DNA of 9,711 nt from a virus. Lineage: Duplodnaviria; Heunggongvirae; Uroviricota; Caudoviricetes. A program made the translations under genes and the position numbers. Shown in pieces: positions 570-9,711 of this stretch; the stretch's first letter is position 1, and each line of letters opens with the position of its first letter. The stretch lies in the IMG/VR virus record IMGVR_UViG_2706794665_000014. One strand, given 5' to 3'. Below the pieces are notes generated by a model. That model had not been told where the DNA came from. It did no database searches and was given only the letters and a program-made list of their open reading frames with translations.

Positions 570-722
570 TCAGTCAGTGTTTCTGGCTAACCAGCAACGC
601 GCGCCAGATTCGGTTTTAAACGTTTTGCTTTTGGTATACGTCATGGCGGTAAACGTTCCATCCTGGTTAGGGAACACGCCGCACACCAGAGATTCGTTGT
701 TGCCAAGATCGATAGTATCCAT
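570..722 (-). CDS. Hypothetical small prophage protein, about 50 aa
   Basis: Minus-strand ORF; ATG at 722 is preceded by AGGGGAAATGAGG with 5-nt spacing. The in-frame extension to 776 has no RBS. Stop overlaps the start of the downstream gene. Confidence 0.45.
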   Translation of the reverse strand: MDTIDLGNNESLVCGVFPNQDGTFTAMTYTKSKTFKTESGARCWLARNTD

Positions 723-903
723 GCTGACCTCATTTCCCCTTAACGCCGGGGTGGCGGAACAAAAAACCTGCTGCATAGTTAAAGATTGAACCCTGCCGTC
801 ATGTTCTTACGCCTCGGGCTGGCTACTTAACCCCTGACCACTGTCTGGTAACTCGAAGTATTGCCCTGCATTCTGTGGGGCGGGGTGGGTTGACGCCTGA
901 AAC

Positions 904-946
904 AATAGCATCATTATTTTTTTTTGATGTAAATAGCATCGCTATT
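904..946. promoter_or_regulatory. Leftward operator-like pair: two copies of the palindrome AATAG-N5-CTATT (O_L-like)
   Basis: 904-918 AATAGCATCATTATT (imperfect) and 932-946 AATAGCATCGCTATT (perfect inverted repeat), 28 bp centre to centre. Same motif as the sites in the repressor/cro intergenic region. Confidence 0.4.
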
Positions 947-961
947 GTTTTTTGTTGGGGC

Positions 962-986
962 AAGAAAAAACCACCCTAAGGTGGTT
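962..986 (-). terminator. Rho-independent terminator at the end of the repressor-antitoxin-toxin operon
   Basis: Stem AACCACC (969-975) / GGTGGTT (980-986) with 4-nt loop. On the minus strand the hairpin is followed by TTTTTCTTG (complement of 961-968). It sits 17 bp past the toxin stop codon (1003-1005). Confidence 0.55.
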
Positions 987-1002
987 CTGTCGGCGGGAAT
1001 AA

Positions 1003-1293
1003 TTAACTGTTTTTGCCTGGATACTGTCTTCGAGAATGCACAATATTTACTACTTCTATGCTTGATGCTGTTACTCGGTAAAGGATGATGTAGTTAGGAT
1101 GAGTTACAATTTCACGAAGACCAAGAACTCGCTCGCTTGGAGGATACAGGTAAGGATGCTCTGTGAGCGGCAAAACGGATGTTTCAATTCGAATTTTCAT
1201 TCTGCGTGCTGCCGCGGGATTTTCTTTAGCTATGTAGGCTACGATCTGGCGCAAATCATCACGAGCAGATGGTAGCCATAAAACGGGTAACAT
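1003..1293 (-). CDS. Type II toxin, ParE/RelE superfamily (96 aa)
   Basis: Size and sequence pattern typical of ParE/RelE toxins (MLPVLWLPSARDDLRQIVAYIAKENPAAARR...GLREIVTHPNYIILYRV...IVHSRRQYP). Start overlaps the upstream antitoxin stop by 1 nt (TAATG); GAGGTG RBS lies inside the antitoxin 3' end. Confidence 0.8.
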   Translation of the reverse strand: MLPVLWLPSARDDLRQIVAYIAKENPAAARRMKIRIETSVLPLTEHPYLYPPSERVLGLREIVTHPNYIILYRVTASSIEVVNIVHSRRQYPGKNS

Positions 1294-1487
1294 TATTCAC
1301 CTCTGTGAGTTGCAGCAGCAATTTGGGCAATAATTTGTTCCATTTCCGCCATTACCTCATCATGCGGAATCGCCGGGCGGGGATCCGCGAGGCTTGCTGC
1401 TACTTTGGCCCGCAGCCATTCGTTGTAACTATTTTCTTGCTCAACTGTCTCAAATTCTGAAACCATTGGGGAAAGGACTGTACTCAT
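1293..1487 (-). CDS. Putative antitoxin (addiction-module antidote-like, 64 aa) paired with the ParE/RelE toxin
   Basis: Small acidic ORF immediately upstream of and overlapping the toxin gene. GAGGAG RBS 9 nt before ATG 1487. Sequence (…NEWLRAKVAASLADPRPAIPHDEVMAEMEQII…) resembles antidote proteins that partner RelE/ParE toxins. Confidence 0.65.
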   Translation of the reverse strand: MSTVLSPMVSEFETVEQENSYNEWLRAKVAASLADPRPAIPHDEVMAEMEQIIAQIAAATHRGE

Positions 1488-1506
1488 TTTACATATCTCC
1501 TCTGAT

Positions 1507-2007
1507 TTAGGCGCGACGGCCTTTTTGTGCAGCTAACCACCGCGCAACCGTACGATCCATTGATTCTTTTTTATCTTTCATCTCCTGAAGCATGTGTTCT
1601 TGATCTTCTTTCGGAAAAGCTCTGAACGTATGGATTAAATCTCGTTCCATCGGCTCTACGGCAAACGGTAGTTCATCCTCTGTTTGTTCTGTGTCTGCTG
1701 GTAATGCGACTATGTTATCTTGCTGTGGTTCTCGACAATACATCCTTGCAATTTGCAGCAAATCTACCATGTCTGGCCTGATTGACTCAGGGGGAACTTT
1801 CAGTAAGCCAGCAAACTTTAGAACAGCCTCAAGGTTTAGTGGGGTTTGACCATTTAGGTAGTGACTTACCGCCCCTTGTGTTGAAAACCCCATAATTTCC
1901 GCCGCACGTTCCTGAGTCAATCCCAACTGAGATTTCTTTGCCATCCAGATTTCTTTCAGTCTTCTGGCGGCGTTGAGGTCGGTGTCTGACAATGATTTTC
2001 TTTTCAT
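1507..2007 (-). CDS. Prophage repressor, XRE-family helix-turn-helix (cI/RacR-like, about 166 aa), no recognisable LexA-like peptidase domain
   Basis: N-terminal HTH (LGLTQERAAEIMGFSTQGAVSHYLNGQTP). Divergent from the cro-like gene. Preferred start ATG 2007 (MKRKSL...); the ORF-track start at 2037 is GTG with no RBS. The C-terminal half is acidic with no Ser/Lys peptidase motif seen. Confidence 0.8.
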   Translation of the reverse strand: MKRKSLSDTDLNAARRLKEIWMAKKSQLGLTQERAAEIMGFSTQGAVSHYLNGQTPLNLEAVLKFAGLLKVPPESIRPDMVDLLQIARMYCREPQQDNIVALPADTEQTEDELPFAVEPMERDLIHTFRAFPKEDQEHMLQEMKDKKESMDRTVARWLAAQKGRRA

Positions 2008-2014
2008 ACATCCA

Positions 2015-2084
2015 ATTCTAATAAGATTGCTAATCACTTTGAAATAGTATCACTATTTACTTTTAAAAATAACAGTGCTATTAA
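2015..2084. promoter_or_regulatory. Divergent promoter/operator region (O_R-like) between the repressor and cro-like genes
   Basis: Three copies of the AATAG-N5-CTATT palindrome at 2020-2034 (weak), 2043-2057 (perfect, AATAGTATCACTATT) and 2068-2082, spaced 23-25 bp. Candidate rightward promoter: -35 TTTACT 2056-2061, -10 TATTAA 2079-2084. Candidate leftward promoter on minus strand: -35 TTCAAA (complement of 2038-2043), -10 TAGAAT (complement of 2015-2020), which places the transcript start at about the repressor ATG. Confidence 0.45.
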
Positions 2085-2118: not shown

Positions 2119-2382
2119 ATGAATCTTGGAGAATATTTGCATCATTTTCATATAACCCAGAGTTCATTTGCTGAGATTGTTGGCGCATCCCAAGGGATGG
2201 TCAGCCACGTTATAACGGGGCGTGCAAAACTTACAGGAGAAAAAATATTACGTTGGTGTGAAGCAACGGGATGGGTGGTGACCCCACATGAGATTGACAG
2301 TAAAACCTACCCCAACCCAACTGACGGCTTGCCTGCTGAGTTTCAGGCTAACACACAACCATCGGCGGGGGTTGATTCATGA
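2119..2382 (+). CDS. Cro-like / YdaS-family HTH regulator (87 aa from ATG 2119)
   Basis: Divergent from the repressor; HTH-like segment QSSFAEIVGASQGMVSHVITGRAKLTGEKILRW. An alternative upstream start at 2092 is in frame. Stop overlaps the next gene's start (ATGA at 2379-2382). Confidence 0.7.
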   Translation: MNLGEYLHHFHITQSSFAEIVGASQGMVSHVITGRAKLTGEKILRWCEATGWVVTPHEIDSKTYPNPTDGLPAEFQANTQPSAGVDS

Positions 2383-2804
2383 AAATCAAGCATGAACACA
2401 TCCGCATGGCGATGAAAGCCTGGGCGCATCCGGACGGTGAAAAAGTTCCGGCAGCTGAAATAACCAGGGTTTATTTCGAACTGGGAATGACGTTTCCGGT
2501 TCTGCATAACGACAGCAAGCACAACACGCTTTATCTCAACACCCAAAAGATTTTCCGTTGGCTGGATAAAGACACCCCTGACGCTGTTGAAAAAATTCAG
2601 GCGTTGTTACCTGCGATCGAAAGGGCAATGCCACCTCCGCTGGTGGCTCGAATGCGCAGCCACAGTTCAGCTTATTTTCGGGAACTGGTGGAGACGCATG
2701 AACGACTGGTGAGAGACGCTGATGATTTTGTCGCAGTGGCAATCGCCGGTTTCAATCAGATGAACCGTGGTGGCCCGGCAGGAAATGCTGTGGCAGTACA
2801 TTGA
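2379..2804 (+). CDS. YdaT-like protein (CII-like regulator family), 141 aa
   Basis: Translationally coupled to the cro-like gene. Size and position match the ydaS-ydaT arrangement of Rac-type prophages. Assigned from gene order and length; weak sequence recollection. Confidence 0.6.
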   Translation: MKIKHEHIRMAMKAWAHPDGEKVPAAEITRVYFELGMTFPVLHNDSKHNTLYLNTQKIFRWLDKDTPDAVEKIQALLPAIERAMPPPLVARMRSHSSAYFRELVETHERLVRDADDFVAVAIAGFNQMNRGGPAGNAVAVH

Positions 2805-2875: not shown

Positions 2876-3953
2876 ATGGCTAACGCCTGGCTCAGATTAT
2901 GGCATGACATGCCAAATGACCCTAAGTGGCGAACAATTGCCAGGGTGTCAGGGCAGCCAATTGCAACAGTGATGGCAGTGTATATCCACCTCCTGGTGAG
3001 CGCGTCACGAAATGTCACGCGAGGTCACATTGATGTCACGACAGAAGNNNNNNNNNNNNNNNNNNNNNNNNNNNNNNNNNNNNNNNNNNNNNNNNNNNNN
3101 NNNNNNNNNNNNNNNNNNNNNNNNNNNNNNNNNNNNNNNNNNNNNNNNNNNNNNNNNNNNNNNNNNNNNNNNNNNNNNNNNNNNNNNNNNNNNNNNNNNN
3201 NNNNNNNNNNNNNNNNNNNNNNNNNNNNNNNNNNNNNNNNNNNNNNNNNNNNNNNNNNNNNNNNNNNNNNNNNNNNNNNNNNNNNNNNNNNNNNNNNNNN
3301 NNNNNNTGTCACGACGAGTCACGACAGATACAGATAAAGATACAGATAAAGAAGATCAAAACACTATGGTCCATGGCGTAAAAAACGCCACGAACCAGGC
3401 AGGGGATGTTCAGACCGTCAATCCTGGTCAGCCAGCAGGCTCGACACCGGAAGCCGATTCAGCGTATGCGCTGAAAGCCGATTCGGGCGCTGTGCAGCAG
3501 GTGATGACCGCAAGGCCGGAGCAATCACTCCAACTGCAGCAGCCTGAAGCCGATTCCGCCATTCAGCGGGAAGCCGATCGGGTAGCCCCGGAAAACACCG
3601 GGCAGCCTGTGGGACGAGTGGATTATCCGGATGTGTTCGAACAGGTCTGGCGGGAATACCCGTTGCGTGCCGGGGCAAACCCGAAGAAATCCGCATTCAG
3701 TGCCTGGAAGGCCAGATTGCGCGAGGGGGTGCCACCAGAGACCATGCTGGATGGTGTGAGGCGTTACGCGAGATACCTGGCGGCGACCGGGAAAGCGGGA
3801 ACGGAATTTGTTCAGCGAGCGACGACGTTTTTTGGGCCGGACCGGAATTTTGAAAACCCCTGGTTGCTCCCGGTAAGCGGCACGAACAACCAGCGTTGTG
3901 TGAATCATATTTCTGAACCGGATACCGAAATTCCGCCGGGATTCAGGGGGTGA
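2876..3953 (+). CDS. Phage replication initiator / replisome organiser (YdaU-DUF1376-like N-terminus), origin iterons inside the coding sequence; frame not continuous across the masked gap (possible frameshift/pseudogene, or two ORFs)
   Basis: ATG 2876 after AGAAGAGG RBS. N-terminus MANAWLRLWHDMPNDPKWRTIARVSG... is typical of phage replication proteins. The C-terminal portion (frame of 3012-3953) ends in a TGA that overlaps the dnaC-like ATG. The frame before the gap (codons at 2876+3n) ends at TAA 3335-3337 after the gap, while the frame reaching 3953 is different. Confidence 0.5.
3004..3350. repeat. Replication-origin-like iteron array (TGTCACG-type repeats at about 10-bp spacing) followed by an AT-rich tandem repeat; the middle is masked
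   Basis: GTCACG at 3004-3009, TGTCACG 3013-3019, GGTCACA 3023-3029, TGTCACG 3034-3040; after the gap TGTCACG 3307-3313 and AGTCACG 3317-3323; then GATACAGATAAA twice (3327-3338, 3339-3350). Confidence 0.5.
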
Positions 3954-4696
3954 TGTGGCATGANNNNNNNNNNNNNNNNNNNNNNNNNNNNNNNNNNNNN
4001 NNNNNNNNNNNNNNNNNNNNNNNNNNNNNNNNNNNNNNNNNNNNNNNNNNNNNNNNNNNNNNNNNNNNNNNNNNNNNNNNNNNNNNNNNNNNNNNNNNNN
4101 NNNNNNNNNNNNNNNNNNNNNNNNNNNNNNNNNNNNNNNNNNNNNNNNNNNNNNNNNNNNNNNNNNNNNNNNNNNNNNNNNNNNNNNNNNNNNNNNNNNN
4201 NNNNNNNNNNNNNNNNNNNNNNNNNNNNNNNNNNNNNCTGATGACCGGGTGCACGAATTTTGTGTTCAGCGGTAAAACCGGCACCGGGAAAAATCACCTT
4301 GCAGCGGCGATGGGTAACCGGCTGATGGCGAAGGGGCGCAGCGTGATTATCGTCACCGAGTCTGATGTCATGAGCGTGTTGCATGACAGCTACGACAACG
4401 GCAAATCCGGTGAAAAATTTTTACAGGAGCTTTGCGGGGTTGATTTGCTGGTCCTGGATGAAATAGGCATTCAGCGGGAGACGAAAAACGAGCAGGTGGT
4501 ATTGCACCAGATAATTGATCGCCGGACAGCATCACTGTGCAGTGTCGGGATGTTAACAAACCTGAATCATGCCGCAATGAGCACGCTTCTTGGTGAGAGG
4601 ATTATGGACCGCATGACCATGAACGGTTGTCGGTGGGTGACGTTTAACTGGGATAGCTGGCGTTCAAATGTCAGCTTTCCGGGAGTTGTGAAGTAA
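3953..4696 (+). CDS. DnaC-like replicative helicase loader (IstB-like AAA+ ATPase; YdaV-like)
   Basis: Walker A FSGKTGTGKNHLAAA and Walker B LLVLDEIG. ATG 3953 overlaps the stop of the upstream replication gene (TGATG). The N-terminal ~90 codons are masked (3964-4237). Confidence 0.85.
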   Translation: MWHXXXXXXXXXXXXXXXXXXXXXXXXXXXXXXXXXXXXXXXXXXXXXXXXXXXXXXXXXXXXXXXXXXXXXXXXXXXXXXXXXXXXXXXXXXXXLMTGCTNFVFSGKTGTGKNHLAAAMGNRLMAKGRSVIIVTESDVMSVLHDSYDNGKSGEKFLQELCGVDLLVLDEIGIQRETKNEQVVLHQIIDRRTASLCSVGMLTNLNHAAMSTLLGERIMDRMTMNGCRWVTFNWDSWRSNVSFPGVVK

Positions 4697-5458: not shown

Positions 5459-5911
5459 ATGGCAAANNNNNNNNNNNNNNNNNNNNNNNNNNNNNNNNNN
5501 NNNNNNNNNNNNNNNNNNNNNNNNNNNNNNNNNNNNNNNNNNNNNNNNNNNNNNNNNNNNNNNNNNNNNNNNNNNNNNNNNNNNNNNNNNNNNNNNNNNN
5601 NNNNNNNNNNNNNNNNNNNNNNNNNNNNNNNNNNNNNNNNNNNNNNNNNNNNNNNNNNNNNNNNNNNNNNNNNNNNNNNNNNNNNNNNNNNNNNNNNNNN
5701 NNNNNNNNNNNNNNNNNNNNNNNNNNNNNNNNNNNNNNNNNNNAAGAAACCATCTGTGGTTGATCCGGACCTTATCTGGTCATTACCGGACGGAGAAATA
5801 CGCCGCTACGACAGACATCAGAACATAATCTGTCGCGAGTGCCGGAAGAGTGAAGTTATGCAGCGTGTACCGGCTTTCTATCAGGGTGATTTTCAGGAGG
5901 CGGTACTGTGA
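5459..5911 (+). CDS. Hypothetical protein, central part masked
   Basis: ATG 5459 follows the previous stop by 15 bp. After the gap the same frame continues through ...CRECRKSEVMQRVPAFYQGDFQEAVL to TGA 5909-5911. Other frames are also open across the N block, so continuity is unproven. Confidence 0.4.
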   Translation: MAXXXXXXXXXXXXXXXXXXXXXXXXXXXXXXXXXXXXXXXXXXXXXXXXXXXXXXXXXXXXXXXXXXXXXXXXXXXXXXXXXXXXXXXXXXXXXKKPSVVDPDLIWSLPDGEIRRYDRHQNIICRECRKSEVMQRVPAFYQGDFQEAVL

Positions 5912-6539: not shown

Positions 6540-8372
6540 ATGGCCCGCATGTTTGATACATTAGGATTTTACATTATGAATGTGCAACATTTTGATTTTT
6601 TTACAGATAATGAGTTTTCTAATCTGGAAAGATATCAAACTTGTAAAGCCATGGCCAAAGGTTATGCGGGCAATTACAAAACCGGGCAGTCAAGGTTGAT
6701 GCATGCCCGCTCATACTGCTTCAGCATCGTAGCTGCATATTGGGATACCCTTGCAAAAAAGCAAAAAAGCAGCATTAAAATGAGGGCAGTACCGCACACT
6801 GTTTACATAGAAGACATTCCATGTGATGCACGCGAGCTCGCTGAACGAACAGGTGAGCTTATTGCTCAATTTCCGGCGGAGGACGCTGGATATCTGATTG
6901 GGTCAATTTATACGGTAATGCTGCCATCCGCTTACCGTTCGGAATTGGGGGCTTACTATACCCCCCCACCTTTGGTAGCGCGTCTCTTGGACCTGGCTGA
7001 AAAGTCTGGTGTTGATTTTTCTCATGCATCGGTTATTGATCCTGCGTGTGGTGGCGGTGCATTTTTGGCACCAGTAGCCATTCGAATGTTAAAAAAAGAC
7101 AAGGGGTCTTCCCCTGAATGGATGTTGAGGAGAATCAGTCGTCGTTTAAAGGGGATAGAGATCGATCCATTTGCGGCTTGGATGAGTTTGGTATTGCTCG
7201 AATCTGTACTAATGCCACTATGTGTAAAGGTAAAACGTAGATTGCCTGAAGATACAATTATTGTTGCTGATGCGCTTCAGCAAGATAAATTTTCTGGTTA
7301 TGATCTTGTGGTAGGGAATCCGCCTTACGGACGTGTCACTCTCGATATTAAAACGAGAGAAAAATATTCTCGTTCGTTATTTGGTCATGCAAATCTATAT
7401 GGATTGTTCACCGACTTAGCTGTTCGCATGGTTAAAGAGAAAACAGGAGTTATTGCATTTCTTACGCCAACTTCTTTTCTTGGTGGGCAGTATTTCACCG
7501 CGCTGCGAACCCTTTTGACCGAAAAAACTACTCCGTATGCCCTTGATTTCGTCACTGACAGGGATGGGGTCTTTGACGATGTTCTCCAGGAAACAATGTT
7601 GACAGCATTCAAGGCGGGAGAACATAAAGTTCGGGCCCAGGTATCCTCACTTGTCCCTAAGGGGTTGAACAAAGCAAAAATTGAGAAAATAGGTAATGTT
7701 GATATAGAAAAAGGTGGAGCAACGTGGCTTTTGCCACGCGTTAAAGATGATGCCTGTTTTCTTAATGTATTAAAACAGATGTCTACGCGTTTAGCTGATC
7801 TGGGATACTCAGTCTCTACAGGTCAGTTAGTCTGGAATCGATTTAAGTCGCAGTTGCGTACGACGAAAGGAAAAAATAGCTACCCATTAGTCTGGGCGGA
7901 ATCAATAACTTCAGCTGGTTTTCGTTTTAGTGCAGACAGAAAAAATCATGTTCCCTATATCGATATAACCCCACAACAGGGTTTCCTTGTGACAAAATCT
8001 GAATGTGTGCTTGTTCAGCGGACAACATCGAAGGAACAGGACAGAAGGATTTTAGCGGCAATTTTACCTCAGGGATTTATAGATGAAACTGGTGGCGTAG
8101 TAGTTGAAAACCATATTAATATTGTATATTCAAACGGATTGTTCTCTGCGGTTCGCCCTGATGTTATTGATATGCTACTTAATTCGCATGTTGTCGATCG
8201 GGCGTTCAGGTGTATAAGCGGAAGTGTTGCTGTTTCGGCCTATGAATTGAATTCAATCCCGTTGCCTTCTCTGGAGCAGGTGATGGAGATTCAATCGTTA
8301 ATTGATGCTGGCGTCCACAGACGGATTATTGAGAGAACTATCGCTGGTTTCTATGGAGTGATGATTGCATGA
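6540..8372 (+). CDS. N6-adenine DNA methyltransferase, gamma class (Eco57I/TaqI-like), 610 aa
   Basis: Motif X GAYYTPPPLVARLL (about 6948-6989), motif I VIDPACGGGAFL (about 7032-7067), motif IV VVGNPPYG (NPPY at 7317-7328), in the order X-I-IV. Alternative start ATG 6576 with AGGA RBS. AT-richer than the upstream phage genes. Confidence 0.85.
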   Translation: MARMFDTLGFYIMNVQHFDFFTDNEFSNLERYQTCKAMAKGYAGNYKTGQSRLMHARSYCFSIVAAYWDTLAKKQKSSIKMRAVPHTVYIEDIPCDARELAERTGELIAQFPAEDAGYLIGSIYTVMLPSAYRSELGAYYTPPPLVARLLDLAEKSGVDFSHASVIDPACGGGAFLAPVAIRMLKKDKGSSPEWMLRRISRRLKGIEIDPFAAWMSLVLLESVLMPLCVKVKRRLPEDTIIVADALQQDKFSGYDLVVGNPPYGRVTLDIKTREKYSRSLFGHANLYGLFTDLAVRMVKEKTGVIAFLTPTSFLGGQYFTALRTLLTEKTTPYALDFVTDRDGVFDDVLQETMLTAFKAGEHKVRAQVSSLVPKGLNKAKIEKIGNVDIEKGGATWLLPRVKDDACFLNVLKQMSTRLADLGYSVSTGQLVWNRFKSQLRTTKGKNSYPLVWAESITSAGFRFSADRKNHVPYIDITPQQGFLVTKSECVLVQRTTSKEQDRRILAAILPQGFIDETGGVVVENHINIVYSNGLFSAVRPDVIDMLLNSHVVDRAFRCISGSVAVSAYELNSIPLPSLEQVMEIQSLIDAGVHRRIIERTIAGFYGVMIA

Positions 8373-9469
8373 ATCTGCCTGTTGTTCCCCCATTGAATGT
8401 TATCCGGGAAAGATTACAATTAATTTTCCCTGAAGGGACTGAGAATCGTGGATATTTAATTCGGGAAATAGCTGCAAAAACAATTTTTGTCATGTTTTAT
8501 GCTGGTGCGGTTGAGGGGCTGGGGCGATGGATAAGGCCCAGCCAGGTTGTAAGTATGGGAGATTCGCAGGCTGCTCTTACTGATGATGCGTCCAGAGAAA
8601 GCTGGGTAAAGATGACTTTCTCTAAACAAAAGATAAGGCCTGCTGATGCATGGTATGCGGAAAATACGCGTGAGCCAATACGTGATGAAACTATAAAAAA
8701 TGGCCTAATACCTTGCAATGCAATTGTTGAGCGTAAAGGTATACCCACCACATCCTCTCGTCCTCGTTACAGTTTGAATCGCTCTTTTGCAGCACTCTTT
8801 GATGCCGGGCTTGAAGGAGATTCGCTGCTGAGTGCAATAAGTTCCTGGCAAGAAAATCATTTGAACAAAGCCGCTCTTGCTAGNNNNNNNNNNNNNNNNN
8901 NNNNNNNNNNNNNNNNNNNNNNNNNNNNNNNNNNNNNNNNNNNNNNNNNNNNNNNNNNNNNNNNNNNNNNNNNNNNNNNNNNNNNNNNNNNNNNNNNNNN
9001 NNNNNNNNNNNNNNNNNNNNNNNNNNNNNNNNNNNNNNNNNNNNNNNNNNNNNNNNNNNNNNNNNNNNNNNNNNNNNNNNNNNNNNNNNNNNNNNNNNNN
9101 NNNNNNNNNNNNNNNNNNNNNNNNNNNNNNNNNNNNNNNNNNNNNNNNNNNNNNCCAGATATTATTTTGATTGATTTGGGAGAGGACCGAACGGGTTCGG
9201 ACATGCTTGTAGTTTTCACTGAAGTAGTTGCGACAGATGGGCCTATAAACAGGGAACGAAAAGTTACTCTCACTCATTTGGCTATTGACGCTGGGTTCAG
9301 CGAGAAAAATCTTGCATTCCTTACGGCATTTATGGACAGAAGTGCTCTGCCTTTTAAAAAGGCAATACCAGAATTGGCGTGGGGATCTTATGCATGGTTT
9401 GCTTCTGAACCGGAGCACTTAATTGATCTTCGGGATGGTTATCCGGTAAAGATCAGCCAGAGAAAATGA
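8369..9469 (+). CDS. Methyltransferase-coupled partner protein, 366 aa; putative restriction endonuclease (possibly BsuBI/PstI-like), family not verified
   Basis: ATG 8369 overlaps the MTase stop (ATGA) with GGAG about 10 nt upstream, so operon coupling is clear. No catalytic motif recognised by eye; about 90 central codons are masked (8884-9154). Function inferred from context. Confidence 0.6.
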   Translation: MNLPVVPPLNVIRERLQLIFPEGTENRGYLIREIAAKTIFVMFYAGAVEGLGRWIRPSQVVSMGDSQAALTDDASRESWVKMTFSKQKIRPADAWYAENTREPIRDETIKNGLIPCNAIVERKGIPTTSSRPRYSLNRSFAALFDAGLEGDSLLSAISSWQENHLNKAALAXXXXXXXXXXXXXXXXXXXXXXXXXXXXXXXXXXXXXXXXXXXXXXXXXXXXXXXXXXXXXXXXXXXXXXXXXXXXXXXXXXXXXXXXXXXPDIILIDLGEDRTGSDMLVVFTEVVATDGPINRERKVTLTHLAIDAGFSEKNLAFLTAFMDRSALPFKKAIPELAWGSYAWFASEPEHLIDLRDGYPVKISQRK

Positions 9470-9621
9470 CCAAAGTTTGATATCCGCCACGCCCTGAAGG
9501 ATGGGGGTTTTACGGTGCACTGGATAAAAAATCGGTTTCATAGATTTGCCCACCGTGGTATACGCCTGCGATAAAAACTTTATTGTCATCAACGGCAAAA
9601 GCAATAATTGTTCTGTGGCGG

Positions 9622-9711
9622 GGTGATGCTGCCAACTTACTGATTTAGTGTATGATGGTGTTTTTGAGGTGCTCCAGTGGCTTCTGTTTCTATCAGCTGT
9701 CCCTCCTGTTC
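9622..9711 (+). mobile_element. IS1 insertion sequence, 5'-terminal 90 bp (left inverted repeat and start of insA); the element continues past the window end
   Basis: GGTGATGCTGCCAACTTACTGAT at 9622-9644 is the IS1 terminal repeat, followed by the canonical IS1 leader and the insA start. Same orientation as the IS1 end at 1-60. Confidence 0.88.
9677..9711 (+). CDS. insA: IS1 InsA, N-terminal codons (3'-partial)
   Basis: GTG 9677 then GCT TCT GTT TCT ATC AGC TGT CCC TCC TGT TC, giving (M)ASVSISCPSC, the InsA N-terminus. Confidence 0.7.
   Translation, partial: MASVSISCPSC

Follow-up and report, generated by a model that had tools for sequence, protein, structure and literature searches.

We analyzed a 9,711-nt stretch of DNA from a virus of the Caudoviricetes (IMG/VR record IMGVR_UViG_2706794665_000014; the whole stretch is called the window below), centering on positions 1003-2007, where a repressor gene is followed on the minus strand by an antitoxin and a toxin gene. 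With a probability of roughly 85%, this locus is a paaR-paaA-parE three-component type II toxin–antitoxin (TA) operon making up the leftward half of the immunity region in a lambdoid E. coli prophage, where it would act as an addiction module stabilizing that region from the position that rexAB occupies in lambda. The closest studied system is paaR2-paaA2-parE2 of prophage CP-933P (Sp12) in E. coli O157:H7 (Hallez 2010; Jurenas 2021, PMC8630535; Prolic-Kalinsek 2023, PMC9986795). This kind of system has already been described, TA pairs in lambdoid immunity operons having been characterized genetically, biochemically, and structurally in E. coli O157:H7, and the window allele is a variant, so far unstudied, of this published paaR-paaA-parE system. 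A sequence-only reading of the same DNA had proposed a ParE/RelE pair embedded in a repressor operon, in the slot that lambda uses for rexAB, and an induction route other than RecA cleavage; that interpretation is right, both in its rexAB-slot analogy and in its non-RecA induction, and has been published before (PMC8630535).

Both members of the pair can be classified by hidden Markov models as ParE_toxin and PaaA2, each above its cut-off, which bears out the ParE/RelE TA identity that had been read from the letters. The 64-residue antitoxin scores 81.9 bits against Pfam PaaA2 (PF21217; cut-off 27, 3e-23) and 94.3 bits against NCBIfam NF050103 (cut-off 50, 3e-27), and it is homologous to the solved PaaA2 of E. 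coli O157 (PDB 3ZBE, E 1.4e-23). Pfam and NCBIfam profiles give no helix-turn-helix (HTH) or ribbon-helix-helix match in it, and its small size, its lack of a DNA-binding domain, and its place directly 5' of parE are those of a PaaA antitoxin. The toxin matches Pfam ParE_toxin (PF05016) over the full length of the model (1-89 of 89; 64.1 bits, curated cut-off 23, 1.8e-17) and the solved O157 ParE2 over residues 1-93 (PDB 5CW7, E 6.7e-37), placing it in the ParE branch of the RelE/ParE superfamily. Within O157, both proteins are closest to the second copy of the system (L003), the toxin being 83% identical to the toxin of that ParE1 locus and 67% to ParE2, and the antitoxin 78% identical to the presumed PaaA1 and 67% to PaaA2. 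The L003 copy was taken from strain ATCC 43894; we infer that it is the paaR1 locus of CP-933M, given that there are two copies in O157 genomes, of which the other encodes ParE2. PaaR2 was taken from phage Evi, in which residues 1-92 of ParE2 are identical. Sterckx and colleagues are said to have found in 2016 that the O157 ParE2 branch does not interact with GyrA.

Three tightly packed minus-strand reading frames occupy positions 1003-2007, and each coordinate was verified against the sequence. The previously described succession of repressor, 19-bp gap, GAGGAG ribosome-binding site, antitoxin, toxin overlapping by 1 nt, and terminator is reproduced base for base (Table 1); at the overlap, the last A of the antitoxin TAA is the first base of the toxin ATG. 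The same reading had placed no terminator between repressor and antitoxin, and indeed the 19-nt gap leaves no room for one, and a consensus terminator scan found none on the minus strand between 2007 and 1003. A regulator just 5' of paaA-parE, on the same strand and across a terminator-free gap, is the arrangement of a three-component TA system, and the regulator–antitoxin gap measures 17-27 nt in the four alleles measured. At the operon end, the region was folded directly, the consensus scan having missed the hairpin at 988-967, which is not among its matches; we would guess that the miss reflects a stem that runs on into the T-run. This hairpin lies 15 bases past the toxin stop and consists of a 9-bp stem, AGAACCACC-UUAG-GGUGGUUUU, followed by UUCUU, with a folding energy of -15.1 kcal/mol (z = -2.8 relative to shuffles). 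Compared with the 80%-identical locus L002 (E. coli 90-3040), the ratio of nonsynonymous to synonymous substitution (dN/dS) is 0.06 for the toxin, 0.05 for the antitoxin, and 0.08 for the repressor, with dS above 1; all three genes are real and under strong purifying selection. Conservation extends to the ribosome-binding site, the 1-nt overlap, and the terminator, and the four masked runs of N in the window (3048-3306, 3964-4237, 5467-5743, and 8884-9154) all fall outside the operon region. These runs measure 259-277 nt, and the first exceeds the matching stretch of the near-identical contigs L005 and L012 by 13 nt; therefore the masks do not keep length exactly.

The repressor links this operon to lambda. 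It matches Pfam HTH_3 (36 bits, cut-off 23, 8e-9), and its residues 2-81 match the lambda cI N-domain in PDB 1LMB, 3BDN, and 7JVT (E about 1e-8 to 3e-9); against 1LMB (E 3e-9), 32 of 80 residues are identical (40%), the N-terminal arm included. Its HTH is thus homologous to that of a lambda cI-type repressor, and the match to full-length cI (3BDN) ends at about residue 90. Farther on, residues 106-162 are matched by positions 74-130 of the NCBIfam DicA model, and the C-terminal 64 residues are 56% identical to PaaR1 and the C-terminal 44 residues 52% identical to PaaR2 (the two C-terminal matches have E-values of 5e-15 and 6e-23). The homology to these two regulators is restricted to the C-terminal 44-64 residues; the N-terminal DNA-binding domain aligns with neither. 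By its domain matches, the protein is a mosaic of a lambda-cI-like N-terminal HTH, a linker, and a PaaR/DicA-type C-terminal domain that lacks the S24 autocleavage domain of cI-type repressors: neither Pfam nor NCBIfam gives a Peptidase_S24 match, as the sequence-only reading had noted. Therefore, RecA-stimulated self-cleavage would not be the induction route, and PaaR2, a cI analogue, likewise has no peptidase motif and is unresponsive to mitomycin C (PMC8630535). The ATG at 2007 is also the RefSeq start in a 98%-identical E. coli locus; an alternative GTG start at 2037 was rejected, since it lies upstream of the predicted -10 box, RefSeq prefers the ATG, and the match to cI begins at residue 2 of the ATG form.

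The control regions on either side of the operon support the same assignment. The -10 box of the PRM-like promoter ends 7 nt 5' of the repressor ATG, and its hexamers and the spacing to the ATG are kept in L002; a leaderless repressor mRNA is therefore predicted. Overlapping this promoter are two palindromes of the form AATAGY-N3-RCTATT, and a weaker third copy with 3 mismatches (2020-2034) was read by eye and is absent from the list of a 2-mismatch search. Relative to the predicted PRM start, the two palindromes are centered at -43 and -68 and the weak copy at -20, which we take to reproduce the geometry of lambda OR2, OR1, and OR3, respectively. Two further copies stand past the terminator, upstream of ydfA. 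At up to 2 mismatches, the 9.7-kb window contains four copies of the palindrome, where chance would give 1.0, and all four fall in the two control regions, which gives the locus the repeated palindromic predicted operators of a cI-type repressor at OR and at a distant OL. In L002, the half-sites of both regions are kept and their central bases have changed; conserved half-sites with varying centers are the pattern expected of operators, and repressor binding is predicted at these sites. The copies are spaced 28 bp apart at OL and 25 bp at OR. The OL-like pair probably marks a PL-equivalent control region, where no convincing pair of PL -35 and -10 hexamers could be assigned. With the TA pair behind a cI analogue and followed by the terminator and the OL-like operators, the locus sits where lambda carries rexAB, as had been proposed.

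A further predicted operator, for YdaT, matches its motif with 0 mismatches and is the sole site in the window with fewer than 2. Both motif and location agree with the YdaT footprint in CP-933P, where the site lies beside a PRE-type promoter for an alternative transcript of the operon; by analogy, this site would mark a PRE-equivalent from which a second transcript would run leftward across the repressor, paaA, and parE genes. A perfect YdaT site would also imply that PRE-type control is conserved despite repressor and Cro classes that differ from those of CP-933P.

Table 1. Coordinates of the operon, its predicted control sites, and the genes that flank it (positions in the window).
Feature	Position	Strand	Details
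ydfA (DUF1391)	570..776	-	Pfam DUF1391, 3e-28; first gene of the leftward early (PL-type) operon
OL-like operators	904..946	.	AATAGY-N3-RCTATT at 904-918 and 932-946; upstream of ydfA, past the terminator
Intrinsic terminator, hairpin plus T-run	967..988	-	Operon end; from folding; kept in L001 and L002
ParE-family toxin gene	1003..1293	-	ATG 1293-1291, stop 1005-1003; 96 aa
PaaA-family antitoxin gene	1293..1487	-	TAA 1295-1293; 64 aa
Shine-Dalgarno GAGGAG	1497..1502	-	Within the 19-nt spacer, 9 nt 5' of the antitoxin ATG at 1487
Repressor–antitoxin spacer	1506-1488	-	19 nt, read from the sequence
Repressor gene	1507..2007	-	ATG 2007, TAA 1509-1507; 166 aa
PRM-like promoter	2015..2043	-	TTCAAA, 17-nt spacer, TAGAAT; promoter scan
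OR-like operator region	2020..2082	.	AATAGY-N3-RCTATT at 2043-2057 and 2068-2082
ydaS-like HTH gene, Cro analogue	2119..2382	+	Pfam HTH_3; PHROG 35 "transcriptional repressor", 8e-17; divergent from the repressor
YdaT operator (predicted)	2372..2389	.	TTGATTCATGAAAATCAA; TTGATTN6AATCAA; across the ydaS stop and ydaT start
ydaT, CII analogue	2379..2804	+	Pfam YdaT_toxin, 5e-9; PHROG 163 "CII-like transcriptional activator", 3e-40

The published work on CP-933P indicates how such a locus behaves. There, paaR2-paaA2-parE2 is an operon repressed by PaaR2 and driven from a PRM-like promoter, and the paaR2 message is leaderless like that of cI, as established by 5' RACE and N-terminal sequencing (PMC8630535); cotranscription with the repressor, which the sequence-only reading had proposed by comparison with lambda, is accordingly described for the homologue and is expected here. 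PaaR2 and YdaS footprints cover OR, a 97-bp intergenic region; PL933P and OL1-3 lie beyond parE2; PaaR2 represses PR and PL, the latter about 100-fold; YdaS serves as Cro and YdaT as CII, activating PRE; and the switch is bistable (PMC8630535). In this prophage, paaA2-parE2 "replaces rexA and rexB." PaaA2 is degraded by ClpAP and ClpXP, and the module is addictive, stabilizing a mini-F plasmid by post-segregational killing (PMC8630535), so that the suggested role in prophage stabilization finds its counterpart in the homologue.

Our locus resembles that of CP-933P in gene order, in strand logic, and in having ydaS and ydaT on one side and PL/OL with the early-left genes on the other. The two also share a PaaA without a DNA-binding domain, a related ParE and regulator C-terminus (67% identity overall and 52% over 44 residues, respectively), a regulator without an S24 domain, an 87%-identical YdaT (compared with that of phage Evi), the same YdaT operator motif, and a -10 box placed for a leaderless transcript. 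They differ in the regulator, whose N-terminal DNA-binding domain is unrelated (PaaR2 has 123 residues and the window repressor 166), in the operators, which are AATAGY-N3-RCTATT here and GTTTAGTAA-type repeats there, in the C-terminal tail of the antitoxin, and in the toxin–antitoxin junction, where the genes overlap by 1 nt here but are 1 nt apart in CP-933P. The paaR1-paaA1-parE1 locus (L003) offers the closest characterized toxin and antitoxin and shares the regulator C-terminus (56% over 64 residues) and the flanks ydfA, ydfB, dicB, and ydaT; however, its 133-residue regulator has an N-domain of another HTH class, and its ydaS-like gene is not homologous at the DNA level.

The likeness to lambda cI-rexA-rexB comprises the homologous repressor N-domain (40% over 80 residues), a leaderless-type start, three operator positions (about -20, -43, and -68 relative to PRM) together with a distant OL, and accessory genes behind the repressor that are predicted here to be cotranscribed and to end at a terminator before PL. 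In contrast to lambda, the cargo is a ParE/PaaA pair without similarity to RexA or RexB, so that this part of the likeness is positional; the repressor C-domain is a short, DicA/PaaR-type helical domain instead of an S24 peptidase, and RecA-mediated cleavage is not expected; and YdaS and YdaT take the places of Cro and CII. DicA of the Qin prophage in E. coli K-12 and the CI of phage Tritos also combine an HTH N-domain with a short C-terminal domain and sit upstream of ydfA...dicB, but no TA pair follows the Tritos gene, and the Tritos C-domain is only distantly similar to that of the window repressor. K-12 dicA is likewise not known to have a TA pair behind it. Classical parDE systems (RK2, Caulobacter, Vibrio) share the ParE-fold toxin and, by analogy, the small labile antitoxin and the addiction phenotype; they differ in that ParD autoregulates through its own ribbon-helix-helix domain, whereas regulation here appears to be outsourced to the phage repressor.

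We propose that, in the lysogen, the repressor would bind the AATAGY-N3-RCTATT operators at OR and OL, silencing both the rightward operon of ydaS (Cro), ydaT (CII), and the replication genes and the leftward ydfA...dicB operon, while driving its own leaderless transcript from the PRM-like promoter. This transcript would read on, without meeting a terminator, into paaA and parE and stop at the hairpin at 988-967, and a YdaT-dependent PRE would provide a second route of transcription. PaaA, having no DNA-binding domain, would neutralize ParE by wrapping around it, with transcriptional control delegated to the phage repressor, together with YdaS and YdaT acting through OR and the PRE-like site at 2372-2389. 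If PaaA is protease-labile, as its studied homologue is toward ClpAP and ClpXP, loss or replacement of the immunity cassette would therefore free ParE and kill the cell. The freed toxin would probably be a DNA-damaging, SOS-inducing one; for CP-933P ParE2, the reported hallmarks of toxicity are SOS induction and nucleoid colocalization, with the target stated to be unknown (PMC8630535).

Several points weigh against this addiction reading. The TA genes of CP-933P are transcribed in both states of the switch, with no ParE2 activity at steady state (PMC8630535). A promoter-like site within the repressor gene (1920-1892) could be an internal promoter for paaA-parE. For the window allele, transcription, toxicity, lability, and addiction are carried over from the CP-933P homologue; furthermore, the repressor N-domain and the operators are unrelated to those of PaaR1 and PaaR2, and any PRM activation, octamerization, or looping would be an extrapolation. 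Another promoter-like site, on the plus strand at 890-917 (TTGACG-16-CATTAT), lies across an OL-like operator and faces into the 3' end of parE. Neither this site nor that at 1920-1892 (minus strand) was interpreted, the number of such sites being at chance level (3 found against 2.7 expected).

The pair could instead be a RexAB-like abortive-infection or superinfection-exclusion module, in which a second phage would disturb the supply of antitoxin and ParE would kill the cell before the invader could replicate. Defense against phage is known for several type II TA systems, and the rexAB position, the expression expected from a lysogenic promoter, and the defense cargo of the same prophage, a type II restriction-modification (R-M) system at 6540-9469, all fit this reading. 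Yet the toxin, antitoxin, and repressor match none of 5027 PADLOC 2.0 defense models (E <= 1e-3), the papers on the CP-933P homologue report addiction and not phage protection, and our literature search linked nothing of this ParE branch to phage defense, returning unrelated prophage papers. We consider such a role unlikely, and it would be compatible with addiction, not exclusive of it.

It is far less probable that the upstream HTH protein is merely a dedicated third TA component, the DNA-binding module of a "split antitoxin," and not the master repressor of the prophage. The absence of a DNA-binding domain in PaaA would suit such a module, as would the first description of the system, which, as cited in later work, was of a TA with three components, PaaR being the regulator (Hallez 2010, via PMC8630535); but the predicted operators recur 1.1 kb away at the OL-like site before the ydfA-dicB operon, the repressor gene is divergent from Cro- and CII-like genes, its N-domain is homologous to that of lambda cI, TA-less phages carry a repressor at the same place, and PaaR2 represses PR and PL (PMC8630535). 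The published argument that PaaR proteins are prophage master repressors "despite lacking sequence similarity" is backed at the sequence level by this allele. Nor, to judge by its genes, is the module likely to be an inactive remnant in a decaying cryptic prophage, which we hold to be the least probable reading of all: CP-933P is itself cryptic (PMC8630535), and the surrounding prophage shows decay, an IS1 element cutting a second RelE/ParE gene at ~9622, but the reading frames of the operon are intact, dN/dS is 0.05-0.08 with dS saturated, the ribosome-binding site, overlap, and terminator are conserved, and an identical junction sequence occurs in 9 IMG/VR prophage contigs.

The gene order, with ydfA, parE, paaA, and the regulator read leftward and ydaS and ydaT read rightward, holds in 7 of the 7 other paaA-parE loci inspected. 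DNA resembling paaA-parE is present in 842 of 5426 complete E. coli genomes, two of which carry this exact allele at >=98% identity. The 43-mer spanning the repressor/antitoxin junction is the sequence found in the nine IMG/VR contigs, one of which (L012) covers most of the window; among the genome contigs scanned, the junction had no exact match. Phages Tritos and vB_EcoS-640R1 share the flanks and carry a repressor alone, without the TA pair; therefore, the pair is optional cargo at this slot.

Comparison of nine repressors revealed three unrelated N-domain classes on the same C-domain and TA pair, so that at least three classes are attached to the conserved C-domain, the class in the window being genuinely homologous to lambda cI. 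Aligned as DNA, the window and the heteroimmune loci cease to be homologous within the repressor gene, at ~1634 (L003) or ~1572 (L004), and the homology returns about where ydaS ends and ydaT starts, near 2308 for L003 and near 2368 for L004; as read from these alignments, this is the classic footprint of immunity-region swapping. The toxin of L019 (E. coli OkiPb01714, 1336-1620) is itself a mosaic, with a ParE2-like N-terminal two-thirds and a ParE1-like C-terminus behind a PaaR1-class regulator, and recombination has therefore occurred inside the toxin gene too. Tentatively, the conserved unit may be the PaaR C-terminal domain together with PaaA and ParE, with unrelated N-domains, operators, and Cro-like partners swapped at the repressor domain boundary; we regard this as possible but on balance doubtful. 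If it were so, the TA pair could police replacement of the immunity region, killing recombinants that have lost it, and the conserved C-domain could be coupled functionally to the PaaA-ParE complex, e.g., in corepression. What the allele adds is a third class of immunity, in which the regulator is evidently homologous to the N-domain of lambda cI; in addition, the homology block common to heteroimmune loci ends at the repressor domain boundary, in keeping with a role already suggested in print for the TA pair, that of protecting the immunity region from replacement by recombination. The modular repressor, hinting at cassette-wise recombination, is a modest new angle that opens no new question.

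The flanking genes complete a lambdoid immunity region, with the operon opposite ydaS-ydaT and its predicted YdaT-type PRE site, and with replication genes (IstB/DnaC-like) following ydaS-ydaT. On the other side, the annotation of L001 and L003 places ydfB/ydfC/dicB, an exonuclease, and an integrase after ydfA. Between the OL-like operators and ydfA lies a leader of ~110 nt (777-890, minus strand) that is 94% identical to its counterpart in the heteroimmune phage Evi and that L001 and L002 strongly conserve. The leftward early transcript may be regulated here, by antitermination or in some other way; Rfam gave no family at threshold anywhere in the window, this leader included, and the interval 777-900 between OL and ydfA carries no folding signal (z = 0.0).

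Farther from the operon, the prophage contains a complete type II R-M cassette (6540-9469, plus strand). Its 610-residue methyltransferase is of the N6-adenine type (PADLOC MTase_II, 1.8e-300; Pfam Eco57I and N6_Mtase), and the gene overlaps that of a 366-residue endonuclease of the BsuBI/PstI family (Pfam PF17728 and PF06616), the middle of which is masked by Ns. At the right-hand end, the 3' portion of a second RelE/ParE-family toxin gene ends at 9510 on the minus strand (window 9510-9711); the gene is cut by one end of an IS1-family element extending past the window edge, with no antitoxin partner visible there, and the fragment shares 99.3% identity with a toxin annotated in two E. coli genomes.

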